Below are positions 1 to 58,083 of a stretch of DNA of 64,000 nucleotides, piece by piece. A program made the position numbers and the translations under genes. The notes under the pieces are model-generated. The model made no database searches, was not told the DNA's origin, and saw nothing but the letters and a program-made list of their open reading frames with translations. The stretch's first letter is position 1; each line of letters begins with the position of its first letter. Origin of the DNA: a virus; the IMG/VR virus record IMGVR_UViG_3300012667_000235, positions 330 to 64,329 of that record, one strand, 5' to 3'.

Positions 1-491
1 TAACATAATTTAGTGTAAAACTTTGGTATTAAGCACCTTGTGACTGCATTGAATGAATATGTAACGTAGATTGCTGATTAATAACCGTTTACCCTAGCTC
101 ACTGTCTTTAACTCCTTTCGCTTTGAGTCCTGTGTAAAGCTGGAACGGAACCAGCACTAATATAAGTCGAAGGCTTGAGTGCTAATCTAACCACTCTGAG
201 GTTTTGTACACCAATAAACAGAAGTACAATGAATTTTTGGGATAGCGCCAATGTAATTTGGCCTTTATACGTAAATAGGATGAGCCATGAGTTGGTGAGA
301 AACCAACCCTATCCCACCCAACCATGCTATGTTAGTTTAGTAAGCAAAACCCTGGTTTTGTACTCCAGTGTCGCCAGCGCAATTCTGGCACGTAGCTCCA
401 ATATTTAGAGTGTAGTACAGGTGACTACGTAGAAGGTACTGCGGAACTCCATATGGAGCGTTAAATATCGAAGCGCAGAATTAATTGAGTT

Positions 492-1398: not shown

Positions 1399-1489
1399 TG
1401 ATTTCAAATGGCTAGGGTAGCTCCTGAAAAGACGTTTCATCACCGTCCTGCCTTTTGTTTATAGTGATGTTCTTTGATGAAAGAATGAT

Positions 1490-2242
1490 ATGAATAAAAC
1501 GCTAATAAGAATTCCGAATGGTCTTTTTACGGGTTTAATTGAAGTATGGAAAGATATAGAAAACTACGAAGGTATTTATCAAGTTAGTAGTTTTGGGAAT
1601 ATTAGATCGTTATCTAGATTTCGCACAGGTAAGGGTTGTTCTAAAATTTTAATAGATGGTAAGTTGATGAAGGTTAAACTTTCTAAAACTGGTTACTCAA
1701 CCATACATCTTAGAAAAAATGGTGAATCAAAACACCCATCAATCCATAGGTTAGTTGCAAAAGCTTTTTTAATTAATAAAGAAAATAAACCAACCGTCAA
1801 TCATGTTGATGGTAATAAAAATAATAATAATATTTCTAATTTAGAATGGTCAACTAGTGCTGAACAGATGCAACATGCAGTAGTTAATAATTTAGTAAAT
1901 AAACAAGGTAGCGCAAAGTTTACCAAAGTGTATAAACAAGAAATATATAACTATTATCATAACCATGATATTAGTATTTTTGCATTAAGTAGACTGTTTT
2001 CTGTAAGTGAAAGAACTGCTGGTAGAATAGTGAAAGGGGTTACACCTAGAACTACTACTCGTATAAAAAAAGATGGTAGTAAGATAATTGAAAATATTCT
2101 AACAAAAGAACAGATTCAAGAAATAAAATTATTACGAAACCAAGGATGGACATTTGCGGAATTATCAGAAAAATTTAATAGAGGTATATCCCAGATGTAT
2201 CGTATAGTTAATGATTTATCTAGAACTACGAACATAGAATAA
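1490..2242 (+). CDS. free-standing HNH homing endonuclease (NUMOD4-like N-terminus plus HNH_3-like core)
   Basis: IEVWKDIENYEGIYQVSSFGNIRS and NHVDGNKNNNNISNLEW motifs. C-terminal helix-turn-helix-like repeats. Located between the small and large terminase genes. Confidence 0.8.
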   Translation: MNKTLIRIPNGLFTGLIEVWKDIENYEGIYQVSSFGNIRSLSRFRTGKGCSKILIDGKLMKVKLSKTGYSTIHLRKNGESKHPSIHRLVAKAFLINKENKPTVNHVDGNKNNNNISNLEWSTSAEQMQHAVVNNLVNKQGSAKFTKVYKQEIYNYYHNHDISIFALSRLFSVSERTAGRIVKGVTPRTTTRIKKDGSKIIENILTKEQIQEIKLLRNQGWTFAELSEKFNRGISQMYRIVNDLSRTTNIE

Positions 2243-2250
2243 GGAGAATT

Positions 2251-2334
2251 ATGTCAGACATTATATTTGCTCCTGCTTCGGAACCACAAAGTCAATTTTT
2301 ATTAAGTGATAGTTGGTTTACAATATATGGTGGT
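2251..2334 (+). CDS. terL: terminase large subunit, exon 1 (MSDIIFAPASEPQSQFLLSDSWFTIYGG)
   Basis: AAGGAG RBS at 2241-2246. The 28-aa N-terminal segment ends in IYGG. Joining to 2548 gives ...IYGG|AAFAGKS, a canonical terminase Walker A. The same reading frame continues into exon 2. Confidence 0.6.
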
Positions 2335-2547
2335 GAACATAGCGCCTCCATTTAAAACCTATTTAATTCGGTGAAACCCTAACGTAAAGTCGAGGGCAAT
2401 ACCGAGCCAAGCGTAATGGCGTGTGTAGAGACTAGTCGAAAGACGTAAGCATCAAGCGATGCTGAAACAGTAGGTAGTGAAAACTAAAGATATAGTCCGA
2501 TACCCAAGGAAACTTGGGAATGCTTTAGCGAAGCATACAACAAAAAG
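2335..2547 (+). ncRNA. group I self-splicing intron, ORF-less (~213 nt) interrupting terL
   Basis: R-like GTAGAGACTAG at 2428-2438 and S-like AAGATATAGTCC at 2487-2498 can form P7 (GACUA/UAGUC). P8 hairpin AGCATC-AAGC-GATGCT. P9 hairpin CCCAAGG-AAA-CTTGGG. Internal guide GCCTCC can pair with exon end GGTGGT, with U.G at the splice site. Last intron base is G. Intron length is a multiple of 3, keeping both exons in frame. Confidence 0.65.
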
Positions 2548-3918
2548 GCAGCTTTCGCAGGTAAGAGTTTTTGCTTACTTGGAAGCATGTTACCAATTAT
2601 CAGTAATCCCGGAACTCGTGCTGTAATTATCCGTAAAACTACTAAAATGTTATCGGGTTCTGGTGGTTTATTTGATGCAGCTATCAATCTTTATTCCAAG
2701 ATTGATCCCAAGATGAAGATTAAGAGTAGAGATTTAACTATTATATTTTCATCTGGTGCAGAACTGCAGTTTACATACTTAGATAAACCTGCTGACCGAA
2801 TGAATTTGCAAGGTAGAGAATACTCCAGAATTGCTTTCGATGAATGTCAGCAATTAGACGGTGACAACGTATTCTATGCATTAAGTCGTTTACGCTCTAC
2901 TCGTGTTAAATACCCATTACAAGCACATGCTACGTGCAATCCTGATCCAAGTTCATTCTTGATGCAGTTTGTAGAGCATATGCTTGATGAGAATCTTGTA
3001 CCAATTAGGCAAGATAAATATAAAGAACGCTACTTTATTAAAGATAGCTCTGGATTTACTTTTTACGATGATAAAGAAGAGGCACATCGTGTTCACGGTG
3101 CTGGTAAAGAAAATCCTGTAAAATCATACTGCTTTATTCCCGGAAGTATTTATGATAATCCAATAGGTCTTGAACAAAATAAAGACTATATCTCTACACT
3201 TAAAGCCCTACCTCCTGTTGAATCAAGAAGATTATTGCATGGTGCTTGGGTACGTGAACAACGAAGTGGTTATTTCAAGAGAGAATGGGCAGAATTTGTA
3301 AACTATCCTAATATTAGGGCAAGCCGTAGATGCCGTGCTTGGGACTTAGCTTTTAGTGAAGCGTCTGAATCAAAACCTCGTGTCGATGCTACCGCAGGTG
3401 TATTAGTATCAAAAGAAGATAGAACAAATAAATATACCGTAGAAGATGTAATTACTCTACGTAAAAGAGTACACGAAGTTGAACAAGCTATTTTTCAAAC
3501 AGCGGAACGTGATGGAAGAGATTGTATTATATCACTTCCACTTGATCCGGGAGCTACTGCTAGTGCTTATTGTAAAGATTTATCAAGAAGATTATCTGAA
3601 CGAGGATTTACTGTAAAACTTACTCGACCAGATAGAGGTAAACTTCAAAGATTTTTACCATTTGCTTCTGTAGCCGAAGCTGGTTTTGTATCTGTTGTTA
3701 GAACAGATTGGACAGAAGATTACATAAATGAATTAGAGCAAACAGAGTTTAATAATAAAACATTTGATGACCAATGTGATGCTACTTCTGATGCTTTTTT
3801 TCATTTGAATAAGACTTTGCAGTTACCTACATTTTCACTACCTGATTTATCTCAAACTCCAGCATATAGTATTAATCCTACAGGTAGTATCCCTATCTCT
3901 GGTGTAACAATTCCATAA
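2548..3918 (+). CDS. terL: terminase large subunit, exon 2 (ATPase Walker A AAFAGKS, Walker B IAFDECQQL, C-terminal nuclease domain)
   Basis: In-frame ORF open from 2488 with no start codon before M2587, yet it carries GKS just upstream of that M. Walker B-like AFDEC. Size and position between small terminase and portal fit terL. Confidence 0.85.
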   Translation, partial: AAFAGKSFCLLGSMLPIISNPGTRAVIIRKTTKMLSGSGGLFDAAINLYSKIDPKMKIKSRDLTIIFSSGAELQFTYLDKPADRMNLQGREYSRIAFDECQQLDGDNVFYALSRLRSTRVKYPLQAHATCNPDPSSFLMQFVEHMLDENLVPIRQDKYKERYFIKDSSGFTFYDDKEEAHRVHGAGKENPVKSYCFIPGSIYDNPIGLEQNKDYISTLKALPPVESRRLLHGAWVREQRSGYFKREWAEFVNYPNIRASRRCRAWDLAFSEASESKPRVDATAGVLVSKEDRTNKYTVEDVITLRKRVHEVEQAIFQTAERDGRDCIISLPLDPGATASAYCKDLSRRLSERGFTVKLTRPDRGKLQRFLPFASVAEAGFVSVVRTDWTEDYINELEQTEFNNKTFDDQCDATSDAFFHLNKTLQLPTFSLPDLSQTPAYSINPTGSIPISGVTIP

Positions 3919-3942
3919 TAGAAATAAAGGAGCCTTTAATAA

Positions 3943-5421
3943 ATGGCTAGAACTAAACAAAATCAAGTCCAAGTAGAAAAGGCTATTGCACCTTCTGATA
4001 AACCTGAAAGGTTTCAGCTTGGTGAAGTAGGATATAGTGGGTTAAATCTATTTAATGGTGTAACTAACGAAGAAGTTAAAAGAGAATTAAATTGGCCTTA
4101 TAGTGCAGAGACATATAAGGAAATGAGTTATCATTCTGCTATTAATTCTTGTTTAAGCCTATACGATAGTTTAATCTCTAAAGTTGATTGGAGAGTACTT
4201 CCTCCAAAAGATGCAACCGAAAAAGAAAAGCAAGAAACTGAATTTGTAAATCAATGTATTGGTGACATGGAGAATTCTTTCCGTGATTTCATCAAAGATG
4301 CATTATCCAGTAACATTTATGGCTTCTCTATCCATGAGAAAGTATTCCGTAGACGTTATAAATCAAATGGCAGTTTATATGATGACGGTAAAATAGGTTT
4401 AAGAAAACTTGCTTTACGTAATCAAGAATCAATTTACAGATTTATTTATGATACAGATGGTAATAACATCGTAGGTGTAGAACAAGTTGTAAATGGGTAT
4501 AATAATCAAAGATATGGTAATCTAAATCAGACTAATATTATTCTACCACGCAGTAAATATGTTCATATTACTGTTGGTCGTAATAGAAATGATCCATTCG
4601 GTAAATCACCGTTACGTGATGTTTACTTAGCATGGAGATATCTGACTGTTATTCAAGAGATTGAAGCAGCAGGTGTAGCTCGTGATTTACAAGGTTTACC
4701 AGTTCTTGAGATTCCTGCACAGTATATGTCAGCAGATGCTTCTGCAGAGCAGAAAGCTATTTACGAGAACTTTAAGAATATTATTCGTAATATCCAAAAT
4801 AATAGCCAATCTGGTATTATTCTTCCTTCTGCTACAGATCCTGATACTCGTGCAAAACTATTTTCTCTTACTCTACTAAATAGTGACGGTAAGAAATCAT
4901 TCGATACAGGTAAGGTAAAAGACTTTTATCAGAATCAGATTTATACTGGTCTTGCTTGTGATCTTTTGATTATGGGTCAATCTGGTGTAGGCTCATTTGC
5001 ATTAGGTGCTTTAAAGAGTAGCATTACTGGTGCATATCTTGAATCAATGCTTGATAATATCGTAGAGATATTCAATCGTGATGTTATTCGTCAATTGTAT
5101 GATCTAAATGGGTTTGATGCTTCTCGTGCATGTTCATTAGATTATGACAATCTACATGCAGTTGATCTAGAAGGTCTGTCCAAGGCTTATCAGCGCATGG
5201 GTGCTACTGGTTTCCTACCTAAGACGGTTGATGTTATTAATCGCGGTCTTACTGCACTTGGTATTGATGAATTACCAGAAGGTACTAATTTAGATGAAGT
5301 TCTTCCTGATAGTACTACCCGCAGTGGTGATGGTATGAAAGAAGGATTGAATTCTGGTACAGGAAGTGCAGATGGATCAGGTGGTGATTCTTCAGCTAGT
5401 AACGCAGATAATACGGCTTAA
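3943..5421 (+). CDS. portal protein
   Basis: 492-aa ORF immediately downstream of terL with an AAGGAG RBS. Gly/Ser/Asp-rich C-terminal tail. Size and position are typical of portal proteins. Confidence 0.7.
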   Translation: MARTKQNQVQVEKAIAPSDKPERFQLGEVGYSGLNLFNGVTNEEVKRELNWPYSAETYKEMSYHSAINSCLSLYDSLISKVDWRVLPPKDATEKEKQETEFVNQCIGDMENSFRDFIKDALSSNIYGFSIHEKVFRRRYKSNGSLYDDGKIGLRKLALRNQESIYRFIYDTDGNNIVGVEQVVNGYNNQRYGNLNQTNIILPRSKYVHITVGRNRNDPFGKSPLRDVYLAWRYLTVIQEIEAAGVARDLQGLPVLEIPAQYMSADASAEQKAIYENFKNIIRNIQNNSQSGIILPSATDPDTRAKLFSLTLLNSDGKKSFDTGKVKDFYQNQIYTGLACDLLIMGQSGVGSFALGALKSSITGAYLESMLDNIVEIFNRDVIRQLYDLNGFDASRACSLDYDNLHAVDLEGLSKAYQRMGATGFLPKTVDVINRGLTALGIDELPEGTNLDEVLPDSTTRSGDGMKEGLNSGTGSADGSGGDSSASNADNTA

Positions 5422-45675: not shown

Positions 45676-45751
45676 TGGTGCGACAGGATGGAATTGAACC
45701 ATCGACCAATGAATTATGAGTTCACTGCTCTACCATTGAGCTACTGTCGCA
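45676..45751 (-). tRNA. tRNA-Met (anticodon CAT; could be Ile-lysidine type)
   Basis: Manual fold. Acceptor TGCGACA/TGTCGCA. Anticodon stem GTGAA/TTCAT with loop CTCATAA. T-arm GATGG-TTCAATTC-CATC. Encoded CCA. Confidence 0.8.
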
Positions 45752-45863
45752 TTATACCATAAGTAAATAGTTATACTGCTGCAGCAAGTTACCAAAATAG
45801 TACAAAAGGTTCATTCGACTGTTCCTAGGTTGACTAAATATTCACTATATAACTATTTACTTA

Positions 45864-45941
45864 TGGTGCGTCTGACAGGAATCGAACCTGTAACCTACGA
45901 TGTAGAAGACCGTAGCTCTATCCAGTTGAGCTACAGACGCA
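45864..45941 (-). tRNA. tRNA-Arg (anticodon TCT)
   Basis: Manual fold. Perfect 7-bp acceptor TGCGTCT/AGACGCA. Anticodon stem ACGGT/ATCGT with loop CTTCTAC. T-arm ACAGG-TTCGATT-CCTGT. Encoded CCA. Confidence 0.75.
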
Positions 45942-52571: not shown

Positions 52572-52863
52572 AGCAGAAACTGCTGTTTTACCTTGCGTTA
52601 TTGCTCGTTTCACCAGACGGTTACTGCTGCAAAGTATAGCACAAACAAGTAAACAACTTAAACAATAACTGCTGCAGTTACTACTACAGTTAAACGTAAG
52701 GTATAACATATGGTGTTATAGCTATAAGGATGGTTTTTCATATGGTGAAATTTACGGTTATGTGTTGTTTTTCAACAACTTTGTAATTTGTGCAAAATCA
52801 TTCAAAATTCTGTGCTAGAATCCAGTTCTTCGAAATTTGTCAACTTAACGTAAAGGAGAATTT

Positions 52864-53406
52864 ATGACAATCATGTTCACTGAAAAGTTTGAATCCTTAG
52901 CTAAAGCTATTAACCTACAACCAGCAGAGCGTTCTATTGCAGAATTCTTCTGGTACTCTGGACTACGACATGCGTTCCAACGTGGTACATCACAACCTGC
53001 TCTGCTCCAAACTAATGGATCAGCATGTGGTGCTACTATTCCACCAAAAGAAGAGTTCAAGTGGAACTTTCCTAGTAAGCCAGCTTATCCTAATCCACGC
53101 GCACCTTCATATGTTAATAAATACCCTGAGAAGAATATTGGATTGGAAGATGAACTAACTCCATACGAAGCTAAGTTGATTTCAATTCTTCTAACAGAAG
53201 TCTTAACTCATAGTCAAGTTGGTGTCAAGAATCTTGAAGCAAATATTAACTATATGTGGAAATACTGCGATAAAGACAATGAAAATACTGAACCTGTGTT
53301 CAAAGAAATGAATCGTGTCAAATCTAGGCTTCACCGTCTAAAAGGTCAAGTAAAAACACTAGCAGATTCACAACGTAAGTTGAAGAAGATTAGCAAAGGT
53401 CTGTAA
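52864..53406 (+). CDS. hypothetical protein
   Basis: 180 aa. AAGGAG RBS. Confidence 0.45.
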   Translation: MTIMFTEKFESLAKAINLQPAERSIAEFFWYSGLRHAFQRGTSQPALLQTNGSACGATIPPKEEFKWNFPSKPAYPNPRAPSYVNKYPEKNIGLEDELTPYEAKLISILLTEVLTHSQVGVKNLEANINYMWKYCDKDNENTEPVFKEMNRVKSRLHRLKGQVKTLADSQRKLKKISKGL

Positions 53407-53506
53407 CAACAGCTAAGAAGCTTCAGAAGGCTCTATAATGGGTTTTCTGGAGCTTACCTAAGCAACCGTACCTTAAACAGAAACAAACGCTTATAGAGGC
53501 TTTAAA

Positions 53507-53857
53507 TTGTCCAAACCAAGAAAGAAGTTTCAGCTAGTAGCAACAACCTTTGACCGCAAGGGTAGACCAATCGCTACTGCACAGAATGATTACCGTAGAA
53601 GTCACCCATTGGCTAAGTACTTTGCTTTGCAAGCTGGTGAATCAGAACATAAAGATAAAATCCATGCCGAATTAAATTCTGTTCTTTCTAGTGGTAAAAA
53701 TGAAGTACACTCTATATTTGTGCAACGATTCAATAAGGATGGTTCAATGGCAAATGCCAAACCATGCACAGCCTGTCAACTTATGCTGAAATCTTTTGGT
53801 GTAAAGCTGGTTAGGTATACAGATAACGATGGTATAAAGGAGTATGTAAATGAGTAA
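53507..53857 (+). CDS. small cytidine-deaminase-fold (CDA-like) protein, substrate unknown
   Basis: HAE at residues 53-55 and PCTAC 31 residues later is the Zn-binding signature spacing of the CDA fold. 116 aa. Confidence 0.45.
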   Translation: MSKPRKKFQLVATTFDRKGRPIATAQNDYRRSHPLAKYFALQAGESEHKDKIHAELNSVLSSGKNEVHSIFVQRFNKDGSMANAKPCTACQLMLKSFGVKLVRYTDNDGIKEYVNE

Positions 53858-54374
53858 AATTCATTCGGTTCTACTGAAAGATATTGAAGAGATAAAAGAG
53901 CACTATACCAAAGTAACAGAATTTGCAGAATTACTTCCAATATATAGTGAAGTTATTTTAAATAAAAAACTAACTGGTGATAATTATTGTGAATTAGCAA
54001 ATCGATATAAACAGCTTTATGCAGATTGGGGAATTAAGTGGTATATACAGACACCTGCTAATTATCCAGAGCTAACATCAAAGCATAAAGGTTTTGTTAC
54101 TATCTATATTAATTGTATGGCCTTGTTTGGTGATGATATTTATCATATGGCATATAAAGAATTGCACGATACTTTACCAAGTATTAAAGTTCATTTCTAT
54201 GATGTATTAAATAGTACATTCTACTTTCTACCGGAAGAAGCAGAAGAAGGTTTGGAAAAGTTGAATAACTGGTATCTTCGTGTAAAAGAAAAATCGAGTG
54301 AATTCCTAAAACAACAACGTAAATTAAAACTTCAAGCTGAATTAGATAAACTAAATAATGAGGAAACCAAATGA
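53850..54374 (+). CDS. hypothetical protein
   Basis: 174 aa. Confidence 0.45.
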   Translation: MSKIHSVLLKDIEEIKEHYTKVTEFAELLPIYSEVILNKKLTGDNYCELANRYKQLYADWGIKWYIQTPANYPELTSKHKGFVTIYINCMALFGDDIYHMAYKELHDTLPSIKVHFYDVLNSTFYFLPEEAEEGLEKLNNWYLRVKEKSSEFLKQQRKLKLQAELDKLNNEETK

Positions 54375-54622
54375 AATTTTATAATCCGTTTAAACCACAT
54401 ATTGCTAAAGTAGACGATACTAAATATGCAATTAGAAGACACTTTGTATTTTATTGGCTATACCTTGATCGAGATAATTTTGCATATTGGTGGGGACTTC
54501 CAGAGTATGTAAGGAAGTATTGTGTACTTAATTCGGAATCTGAAGCTATTAAATTACTGGATCGATATTATAGACGTAAGAAAATTATTTCTGAGTTTTA
54601 TTCAAAAGGTTCTAATAAATGA
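54371..54622 (+). CDS. hypothetical protein
   Basis: 83 aa. Confidence 0.4.
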   Translation: MKFYNPFKPHIAKVDDTKYAIRRHFVFYWLYLDRDNFAYWWGLPEYVRKYCVLNSESEAIKLLDRYYRRKKIISEFYSKGSNK

Positions 54623-56418: not shown

Positions 56419-56783
56419 CTGATTTTGAAATAAATAAATTACTAGCATTAGCTATTGGATGGAAACCAAATGATATTTGCCTTTACTGCAATCAAATTGA
56501 CGTATGGTTTGTAAAAGAATGGGAAGCTGATTGGAAAAGATTTGATTATAGAGATTGGGCTACTATTGGCCCAATAGCTGAAAAATATGGAATGTTTCCT
56601 AGCCCAATGTCAGGTGGAGATTATAATAAAGCAAAACGTCAAGGTTATACTGACATTGAAAAATGGGAAGTTATCTATTGTGACTACAGTGTTGGGGGTA
56701 TCAATAATGCAAAATGGTGCAGAGTTGAAGATACTTGCGCTAAACGAGCAATTGCCCTTGCTGTTATAGAAAGAAATAAATGA
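56415..56783 (+). CDS. NinX/DUF2591-like phage protein (AT-rich copy)
   Basis: LALAIGW...FDYRDWATIGPIAEKY. Paralogous to 61763..62026. Confidence 0.4.
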   Translation: MTDFEINKLLALAIGWKPNDICLYCNQIDVWFVKEWEADWKRFDYRDWATIGPIAEKYGMFPSPMSGGDYNKAKRQGYTDIEKWEVIYCDYSVGGINNAKWCRVEDTCAKRAIALAVIERNK

Positions 56784-57175
56784 CAACAGTTGAAGTTTGG
56801 AAATCTATTATAAACTTTGAAGGTTATTATGAAGTAAGTAACTTTGGTAATGTGAGAAGTTGTGATAGATTAGTAAATTGCTCCAGAGGATATAGCAGAA
56901 GACTTTGGAAAGGTAAGATTTTATCTAAAATAGTAGCAAGTACCAGAGGTTATTATCAAGTCTCTTTTTGCAAATCTGGTATTATTACAAAACATTACAT
57001 ACATCGTTTAGTAGCTGAAACATTTCTACTAGAACGAAATGAAACTGTTAATCATATTGATGGTAATAAACTAAATAATGAATTATCTAATCTTGAATGG
57101 GTAACATATTCTGAAAATAATAAACATGCGTTTTCTCTTAAACTAAAATTACCATCTGGAGGTATAAATAAATGA
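56780..57175 (+). CDS. HNH homing endonuclease (NUMOD4-like plus HNH_3-like)
   Basis: VEVWKSIINFEGYYEVSNFGNVRS and NHIDGNKLNNELSNLEWVT. Immediately upstream of thyX. Confidence 0.8.
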   Translation: MTTVEVWKSIINFEGYYEVSNFGNVRSCDRLVNCSRGYSRRLWKGKILSKIVASTRGYYQVSFCKSGIITKHYIHRLVAETFLLERNETVNHIDGNKLNNELSNLEWVTYSENNKHAFSLKLKLPSGGINK

Positions 57176-58083
57176 CAATTACAGCTAAAATTATTGCAGA
57201 TAGTACAGATCAAAAAGGTGTACGGATTATTACATTTGAATTGGACTATCCTCGTTTTATTCATAGTGAACTAATGACACATCGTGTATTTAGTCGTAAC
57301 AGTGCAAGTTCTCGTGCTATTCCAATTCAAAGTATGATTGATAATATCAGAGCTAATCCTGCTACTCCTATTCATTGGGGTAAGAATCAAACAGGTATGC
57401 AAGCTAAACAAGAATTAACTGGTGTAGAATTAGAAGCTGCTCAAACGCAATGGGGTGCTGCAGCAACTGATGCATTATATTGGAGTTATCGTCTAAGTAC
57501 CAATGGTACTCATAAACAAATTGCAAATCGTATTACTGAACCATTTCAACATATGAAAGTTGTAGTAACTAGTACTGAATGGAATAATTGGTTCTGGCTA
57601 CGTAATCATCCTGATGCTCAACCTGAAATTGCAGAGCTTGCAAAGCAAATGCTAATAGCAATGGAAAATAGCAAGACAGAAGTATTAAAGCATGGTGAAT
57701 GGCATTTACCTTATGTAAAGACATATAGAGATACTGAAGATAGTGTTCGCACATATTGGGATGATGAAGTAGCTCAGATTACACTGCAGCAAGCAATTAT
57801 GATTTCTGCTAGTTCTTGTGCTCAAGTATCTTATCGTAAAAATGATACATCATTGGAAAAAGCTGAAGTAATTTATAAACGATTAATTGAATCAGAACCT
57901 TGTCATGCAAGTCCAGTAGAACATCAGGCAATGTGTTATGATCAGCATATCGGTCTTGGAGAATTTGGAGAATGGCCCGTTGGTTATACACATATTGATC
58001 GTAAAGGTCAGCTATGGTCAAATAATTTCCGTAGTTGGATTCAGAATCGTGCGTTAATTCCTAATAATGTAAAGGAAGGTTAA
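57172..58083 (+). CDS. thyX: flavin-dependent thymidylate synthase ThyX
   Basis: ThyX signature RHRxxSxNxxSxR is present as HRVFSRNSASSRAIP. Confidence 0.9.
   Translation: MTITAKIIADSTDQKGVRIITFELDYPRFIHSELMTHRVFSRNSASSRAIPIQSMIDNIRANPATPIHWGKNQTGMQAKQELTGVELEAAQTQWGAAATDALYWSYRLSTNGTHKQIANRITEPFQHMKVVVTSTEWNNWFWLRNHPDAQPEIAELAKQMLIAMENSKTEVLKHGEWHLPYVKTYRDTEDSVRTYWDDEVAQITLQQAIMISASSCAQVSYRKNDTSLEKAEVIYKRLIESEPCHASPVEHQAMCYDQHIGLGEFGEWPVGYTHIDRKGQLWSNNFRSWIQNRALIPNNVKEG

Follow-up and report, generated by a model that had tools for sequence, protein, structure and literature searches.

A 213-nt group I intron without an open reading frame interrupts the Walker A codons of a phage large terminase gene and adjoins a candidate homing endonuclease gene

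What restores an intact large terminase (TerL) in a phage whose terL gene breaks off within the codons of its nucleotide-binding loop (the P-loop, or Walker A motif)? The question is raised by a 64,000-nucleotide (nt) stretch of the IMG/VR virus record IMGVR_UViG_3300012667_000235, here called the window, in which terL is divided between a 28-codon mini-exon and a downstream frame carrying the rest of the protein (Table 1). Read onward, the exon 1 frame meets a stop codon at 2353 to 2355, seven codons into the intervening DNA; the exon 2 frame is open from 2488 and has its first ATG, GTG, or TTG at 2587. Judging from sequence, we consider it very probable that positions 2335 to 2547 form a functional, self-splicing group I intron without an open reading frame (ORF), spliced at 2334/2548 (a slash within a sequence or between two positions marks a junction or insertion point throughout). 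The interruption separates the second Gly codon of the TerL Walker A motif from its first Ala codon (YGG/AAFAGKS). By the mechanism established for group I introns, an external guanosine bound in helix P7 would attack after U2334, and the freed 3′-OH of exon 1 would then attack after G2547, leaving the exons ligated. Because an unspliced mRNA terminates at 2353 to 2355, only spliced mRNA would give an ATPase-competent terminase.

Excision of exactly 2335 to 2547 restores a TerL that is colinear with uninterrupted homologues. The conceptual spliced junction reads ...TATGGTGGT/GCAGCTTTC... in DNA, and the translation of exon 2 reads AAFAGKSFCLLGSMLPI... from 2548. The Pfam Terminase_6N match of the spliced protein begins at residue 26 (profile position 2) and so crosses the junction; a match to Pfam Terminase_6C is present too. 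A search of 5.8 billion proteins for TerL homologues (hits labeled P0001 and so on) returned numerous uninterrupted proteins of 483 to 503 amino acids (aa), which read ...FTLYGGAAFAGKS; one of these, P0002, is 85% identical to the spliced protein and begins MSNIVFSPASEPQSQFLLSDSWFTLYGGAAFAGKSMCLLGSMLPIISNPG. P0002, P0003, P0006, and others carry FT[IL]YGGAAFAGKS contiguously, and the join FTIYGG/AAFAGKSF is colinear with them, with no residues missing or extra. The database entry for the window itself (P0001) is a 443-aa protein that begins at Met2587 and lacks Walker A, and P0004, P0005, P0031, and other relatives are likewise called from an internal start. At the DNA level, relatives are IMG/VR phage contigs labeled L001 and so on, and a TerL-anchored sample of 15 loci was assembled by tblastn with the spliced TerL. 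The alignment breaks between residues 28 and 29 in the window, L008, L009, L010, and L015, runs uninterrupted through that point in L001 (89% identity), L002 to L007, L011, and L013, and begins only at residue 21 in L012. In all, the window and over 20 loci show the 28/29 break.

The intervening DNA is recognized as a group I intron when it is searched as a short stretch. The Rfam model RF00028 matches 2293 to 2519 with 67.9 bits (gathering score, 50; E = 3.4e-17) in a 501-nt search of 2200 to 2700. Rfam scans of the whole 64-kb window, at the gathering threshold or in E-value mode, do not report the intron; given that the 501-nt scan detects it, these misses reflect an effect of the speed filter and not absence. 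A covariance model built in-house for the intron family (R1) scores 264 bits on the terL intron, its only match within the window, and no second copy was found in the window with R1 or with the motif AAGATATAGTCC at up to one mismatch. The region folds better than all of 200 shuffles (z = -3.5), and within 2335 to 2547 the only ORFs of at least 25 aa are read-through tails.

To this can be added comparative evidence for the fold. A DNA pattern taken from the P4-P5 core matched 53 IMG/VR loci, and 23 distinct TerL P-loop introns of 213 to 246 nt were placed in an alignment (A2) whose secondary structure was written by hand. Standard pairs fill 94.8% of cells across the 23 homologues, compared with 35 to 46% when the 3′ partners are slid by one to three columns, and 34 of 63 pairs have changed on both sides, compared with 9 to 14 in the slid controls. 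On four of five measures none of 500 shuffles matched the observed values; the count of further pair types was reached by 36 of the 500. The covariation at three P7 pairs confirms the P3/P7 pseudoknot. Given the Rfam E value, the fold z score, and covariation that beats its controls, the intron pattern is not a product of chance, and compensatory substitutions have preserved the fold across about 30 phage lineages. For P6, the pairing C85-G97/C86-G96 was rejected in favor of G89-C98/C90-G97, for which alone variant L035 compensates.

Two hairpins, P7.1 and P7.2, separate P7 from the 3′ strand of P3, and the fold has no P2; RF00028 handles the two hairpins as an insertion. On the basis of this helix layout the intron looks like a member of subgroup IA (IA2-like, whether IA2 or IA3), which is the usual group I type in phages. 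The IA2 phage introns T4 td and Twort orf142-I2 have a compact core and carry P7.1 and P7.2 in the same place. Definitions of the group I classes, including subgroup IA, are given elsewhere (PMC3984707), and phage IA2 is itself heterogeneous (PMC11878797).

At the 5′ boundary the internal guide pairs with the last 8 to 9 nt of exon 1. Its core GCCUCC (2344 to 2349) pairs with exon GGUGGU (2329 to 2334), placing a U2334·G2344 pair at the 5′ splice site, and a U·G pair occupies this position in each of the 23 introns. Splicing at 2335/2549 would yield an identical mRNA, and the U·G rule favors 2334/2548. Guide and exon also change together: an exon Tyr codon of TAT goes with A in the guide and one of TAC with G, and in five lineages with exon GGCGGU a C-G pair replaces the U × U mismatch that the main group has within P1. 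Exon 1 ends in GGTGGT in all 18 main-group intron-bearing alleles. In intron-less alleles the wobble positions of GGN GGN vary freely, with GGTGGT in one of eight; the intron-less allele of L001 reads ...TACGGTGGT/GCTGCGTTCGCTGGTAAA... at the insertion site.

Much of this had been anticipated in a sequence-only reading of the window, which proposed a small ORF-less group I intron at 2334/2548 within the Walker A codons, an exon 1 with its own ribosome-binding site (RBS), a GKS encoded upstream of Met2587 in a frame without an earlier start, and the FTIYGG/AAFAGKSF join. The exon and frame features can be read directly from the sequence, and the split is now borne out by RF00028 above its threshold on the short stretch, by the residue-for-residue colinear protein, and by covariation. 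The same reading formed P7 from an R-like GAGACUAG (2427 to 2434) and an S-like AUAGUCC (2492 to 2498), as three covarying pairs now corroborate; it was also right about P9, the terminal G, and the guide with U·G at the junction, within which one U × U mismatch has to be admitted. It took the hairpin AGCAUC with GAUGCU for P8; this is P7.2, and the true P8 lies on the far side of the 3′ strand of P3. Its remark that the intron is near the lower size limit is fair, since 213 nt is the shortest length among the 23. The length it gave is correct, while the fact that 213 is a multiple of three is without significance; other family lengths include 233, 230, and 218 nt.

Table 1. Positions of the terL exons, the intron and its helices, and associated elements (window coordinates unless a locus is named)
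Feature	Position	Strand	Basis and remarks
int-alpA-like structured RNA element	1405-1469	+	RF02996, 33 bits (gathering score 35.8), E = 1.1e-5
Free-standing homing-endonuclease gene (candidate)	1490-2242	+	250 aa; NUMOD4, HNH_3, and C-terminal DNA-binding region
terL RBS (AAGGAG)	2241-2246	+	Sequence; 4 nt before ATG 2251
terL exon 1	2251-2334	+	28 codons, encodes MSDIIFAPASEPQSQFLLSDSWFTIYGG; last 9 nt form P1 5′ strand
ORF-less group I intron	2335-2547	+	213 nt, terminal G 2547; Rfam RF00028, R1 model, covariation
P1	2327-2335 with 2343-2351	+	Hand-written structure; 3′ strand is the internal guide
P3	2358-2363 with 2469-2474	+	6 of 6 pairs covary
P4	2368-2373 with 2400-2405	+	Invariant, hence uninformative
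P5	2377-2380 with 2393-2396	+	Invariant, hence uninformative
P6	2406-2412 with 2419-2424	+	Hand-written structure
P7	2428-2434 with 2493-2498	+	3 of 6 pairs covary
P7.1	2435-2444	+	GAAA loop; 3 of 3 pairs with compensatory changes
P7.2	2448-2463	+	AGCAUC with GAUGCU; 6 of 6 pairs with compensatory changes
P8	2475-2486	+	UAGU-GAAA-ACUA; every pair covaries
P9	2503-2518	+	CCCAAG with CUUGGG, GAAA loop; covariation present
P9.1	2520-2536	+	Covariation present
Terminal G	2547	+	Present in 23 of 23 family members
terL exon 2	2548-3918	+	Begins AAFAGKSF (remainder of Walker A); ATPase and nuclease domains; stop 3916-3918
GIY-YIG-like genes in orf130-terL slot	L007:2922-3998; L008:582-1760; L014:2899-4002; L025	n/a	Domain match

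About 30 of the 53 core-pattern loci carry the intron in TerL at the same break point, in terminases 31 to 58% identical to that of the window. Presence varies among close relatives, as the intron-less L001 (89% TerL identity) illustrates, and within the TerL-anchored sample the P-loop site (site 1) is occupied in 4 of 15 loci. A megablast search of 1400 to 4000 against cultured phages gave a single irrelevant 52-nt match, so the window phage has no close cultured relative; among cultured phages its TerL is best matched in Limnohabitans phage DC31 (45%), followed by Curvibacter phage P26059A (42%).

Other insertions in terL were seen in the course of these comparisons. Related P-loop introns are inserted 3 or 6 nt farther downstream in L030, L035, L044, L051, and L054 (FGGG/AGSGKS) and in L068, L069, and L149 (GGAA/GSGKT, FFGGGA/GGGKT), always between codons and with the guide re-matched to the new exon end. 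L041 (6095 to 6345 and downstream, minus strand) and L052 have both an intron in the TerL P-loop (YGG/AAGSGK) and an intein six codons later (GK/ALRHGEKVL...), that is, two different selfish elements in one nucleotide-binding loop; P0083 is an intein-bearing TerL of 837 aa with Hom_end and LAGLIDADG_3 domains. Directly before Walker B (YSR/IAFDECQQ, residues 122/123) there is a second group I intron site. It is occupied in L010 (744 to 999), L014 (4364 to 4611), and L015 (2717 to 2952), and also in L018, L022, L031, and L044, and the window lacks this intron; the L010 copy matches RF00028 with 77.5 bits and has a P7.1/P7.2-type insertion. A third insertion lies near residues 436/437 in L015 (3934 to 4892) and L028 (1808 to 2053). 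In L015 it is a group I-like element containing a 250-aa HNH ORF (4117 to 4869; PHROG 2081), which brings that terL to three introns. Related ribozyme cores also occur in other host genes in L033, L036, L050, L056, L066, and L067 (exon end ...GCACCGCGTGGT/), with further cores outside terL in L017, L032, L039, and the pair L064/L065, some of them with long internal ORF-like inserts.

If the intron has no ORF, what could move it? Directly upstream lies a gene whose product matches Pfam NUMOD4 (1.2e-14), HNH_3 (2.7e-8), and the HNH endonucleases of PHROG 59 (8.8e-45). Its stop codon overlaps the terL RBS, and it ends 92 nt upstream of the intron insertion site, close enough for recombination to link the two. 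In L001, the closest intron-less relative, orf130 is followed directly by terL with no HNH gene between them, which identifies the HNH gene as an insertion; it is likewise absent, with orf130 adjoining terL, from L002 to L006, L010, L013, and L015. A query with the whole HNH protein returned 600 stretches, most of which matched the N-terminal domain only (the general NUMOD4/HNH family), and the search for orthologues was therefore redone with the C-terminal domain as sole query. An intron-bearing terL directly follows a full-length orthologue, one sharing the C-terminal DNA-binding part, in the window, L009, L027, L029, L031, L038, L049, and L054; the same arrangement holds in L068 to L070, found with the HNH query, and in L153, L154, L156, and L158, found with the C-terminal domain. 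Across these 15 distinct loci the intron is invariably present, 90 to 130 nt downstream of the HNH gene, and the C-terminal-domain search taken by itself gave 10 confirmed loci, all with the intron. Conversely, none of the 12 terL loci without a site-1 intron in the TerL-anchored sample has the orthologue. L009 and L054 share 72% identity in their HNH proteins even though the corresponding TerLs are 77% and 34% identical to that of the window, which indicates that the HNH gene moves between lineages. This one-way dependence, in which HNH loci all have the intron and the intron often occurs without HNH, is what collaborative homing predicts, since there the intron splits the target of the endonuclease (PMC6083498, PMC3984707). 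On this pattern of co-occurrence we lean toward the upstream HNH protein as the homing partner of the intron, acting in trans.

Immediately before the HNH gene comes a structured RNA that resembles int-alpA and has a U-rich run at its end. This element is kept upstream of HNH in L009, L027, L031, L054, and L068, with some compensatory changes, and is absent from the HNH-less L001. It may function as a leader, a terminator, or a small RNA, and any link to the intron system is tentative. An alternative occupant of the orf130-terL slot is a 358- to 392-aa protein that combines repeated CxxC pairs with a MUG113/T5orf172 (GIY-YIG-like) domain and occurs with or without the site-1 intron. Elsewhere in the window, a second NUMOD4/HNH_3 gene (56780 to 57175, plus strand) encodes a 131-aa protein that is 48% identical to the first and lacks its C-terminal domain; it is probably another free-standing homing endonuclease and overlaps the start of a gene at 57172 to 58083 that looks thyX-like by eye, from an RHR/SxxxS-type motif. 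An Rfam tRNA match (48.5 bits) was also recorded at 326 to 397 (plus strand), where ARAGORN reports nothing, its only calls being tRNA-Met and tRNA-Arg at 45676 to 45940.

Collaborative homing would begin with a cut or nick made by the HNH endonuclease in an intron-less terL, in or close to the P-loop. Donor-templated repair would then transfer HNH gene, mini-exon, and intron as one block, and genomes carrying the intron would be protected because it divides the HNH target. Cleavage away from the insertion site, in the style of T4 MobE, could also operate as a sub-case of this explanation. As a tentative extension, one we would not yet bet on, the leader RNA (the int-alpA-like element), HNH gene, mini-exon, and intron may make up one composite selfish cassette that has spread among divergent phages (TerL identity down to about 31 to 35%) by attacking the near-invariant P-loop codons. 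The intron would then serve as the immunity element against the endonuclease, and each shift of its insertion site by whole codons, to a position after codon 28, 29, or 30, would have been met by re-adaptation of the guide; between co-infecting phages such a cassette might even act as a weapon that cuts a rival's packaging gene.

Several observations pull the other way. P1 contains its internal mismatch and P10 amounts to at most 2 bp; the RF00028 score depends on relaxed filters and disappears from whole-window scans; about 12 intron-bearing loci have no HNH gene upstream; L008 and L025 carry a GIY-YIG/T5orf172-like gene in its stead, a type of gene that also stands beside intron-less terL in L007 and L014; and sliding nucleotide identity between the spliced terL and L001, L002, L007, L008, L009, and L010 revealed no clear co-conversion tract, only a generally higher conservation of the ATPase half. 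Could the intron then be a decayed relic that no longer splices, with a TerL made from Met2587 without a P-loop or a dead gene, and the 28-codon ORF a separate peptide? Gene callers do annotate it so, in P0001 and in the records of Rheinheimera phage Barba19A, and some Bastillevirinae phage introns fail to self-splice in vitro (PMC11878797). Those same introns are nevertheless spliced in vivo, TerL needs the Walker A GKS to be an ATPase, the protein sequence of exon 1 is conserved and the guide covaries with it, and compensatory changes keep the ribozyme fold across lineages whose TerLs are 31 to 89% identical, all of which makes a relic very improbable. We give still less credence, next to none, to a crossing of the gap without RNA splicing, by translational bypassing or a join at the protein level. 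That the exon 1 frame stops only seven codons into a gap whose length is a multiple of three would suit such a crossing, but the gap is a complete, covarying group I ribozyme with neither intein motifs nor an open frame, and the family lengths that are not multiples of three do not fit it.

A more serious contender accepts the intron and denies the partnership. HNH genes beside terminase genes can be packaging cofactors, as in HK97 gp74-type systems, and the gene upstream of terL might be of this kind, or an unrelated selfish endonuclease gene might be hitchhiking there, its product directed at the terS-terL junction. Such a reading gains from the intron-bearing loci that lack any HNH gene and from the presence of other endonuclease genes in the slot regardless of the site-1 intron (L007, L014). 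A packaging role is at odds with the absence of the gene from the closest relatives (L001 to L006, L013), where it is evidently no essential packaging component, and with a protein of the NUMOD4/HNH_3 homing-endonuclease type that has a long DNA-binding tail. Against either version stands the one-way dependence, with the intron at 15 of 15 HNH loci, as expected if the intron shields the HNH target. We regard an HNH gene unconnected with the intron as unlikely, though a good deal less so than a relic, and continue to prefer homing in trans.

Both introns in terL and the arrangement of an intron with an endonuclease gene are already known from other phages; the window adds a member to these systems, with the putative partnership in a gene that is new for it, and no new mechanism. 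Splicing of a terL group I intron was shown by reverse transcription-PCR in Shewanella phage KASIA (PMC8541194), and among Bastillevirinae (e.g., SIOphi) 5 of 52 terL genes are split, with splicing shown both in vitro and in vivo and a mean intron length of 802 nt (PMC11878797). These introns and that of Vibrio phage VEN are likewise group I introns in the large terminase gene and mostly have an endonuclease ORF of their own, unlike the 213 nt of the window. VEN has an annotated split TerL with an intron-encoded homing endonuclease and a ribozyme core related to that of the window (71.6% over 146 nt; 121 bits with R1), but its intron lies elsewhere in TerL, exon 1 ending ...MYIDPAGK some 390 codons in. 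Rheinheimera phage Barba19A (genus Barbavirus, NC_048190; L149) belongs to the same intron family (R1, 167.9 bits) and is interrupted in the TerL P-loop (FFGGGA/GGGKT), 6 nt farther downstream than the window and in a TerL about 31% identical; an orthologue of the window HNH was not found directly upstream. In its GenBank record (52842 to 54556), exon 1 is listed as a hypothetical protein of 48 aa and TerL is given an internal start. The intron query matches 115 records of cultured Rheinheimera (Barba) phages, with the P-loop position confirmed in one, Barba19A, and no paper mentioning Rheinheimera phage introns turned up in the literature covered. The sequence-only statement that introns are uncommon in packaging genes is thus only partly right, given KASIA, the Bastillevirinae, about 30 IMG/VR loci, and these 115 records.

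For the partnership, the nearest parallel is cyanophage S-PM2, in which a psbA group I intron and the adjacent free-standing endonuclease F-CphI engage in collaborative homing (Zeng, Bonocora & Shub 2009, as related by PMC6083498 and PMC3984707). Both systems combine a small ORF-less intron in a highly conserved phage gene with an adjoining free-standing endonuclease and intron-less relatives, and for both, protection of the endonuclease target by the intron has been proposed. They differ in that the window host gene is terL and not psbA, the enzyme is of the NUMOD4/HNH_3 and not the Endo VII-type DHHRN class and is encoded upstream, 92 nt away, and homing in the window is putative. In T4, the free-standing HNH endonuclease gene mobE mobilizes the nrdB intron in trans by nicking away from the insertion site (PMC2790892). 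There too an HNH-family enzyme is encoded beside an intron unable to move alone, and co-conversion relies on proximity; the nrdB intron keeps a defunct endonuclease ORF, whereas the window intron has none.

No phage marker gene is used more widely than terL. This intron escapes default gene callers and genome-scale Rfam scans, so that TerL is recorded truncated, without Walker A, next to a stray hypothetical mini-ORF; the window contig is annotated in this way, as are many other contigs in IMG/VR and cultured Rheinheimera phages in GenBank. Recognizing the intron repairs these TerL annotations and the phylogenies and hidden Markov models built on them. Because RF00028 detection depends on the length searched (501 nt versus 64 kb), similar introns are likely to be under-annotated in phage genomes generally. 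The roughly 30 lineages with an ORF-less intron, together with the free-standing HNH gene, offer good material for testing the collaborative-homing model of mobile-intron origin, and the shifts of the insertion point within the P-loop, with an intein six codons away in some phages, may help to account for the frequent invasion of nucleotide-binding loops by introns and inteins.

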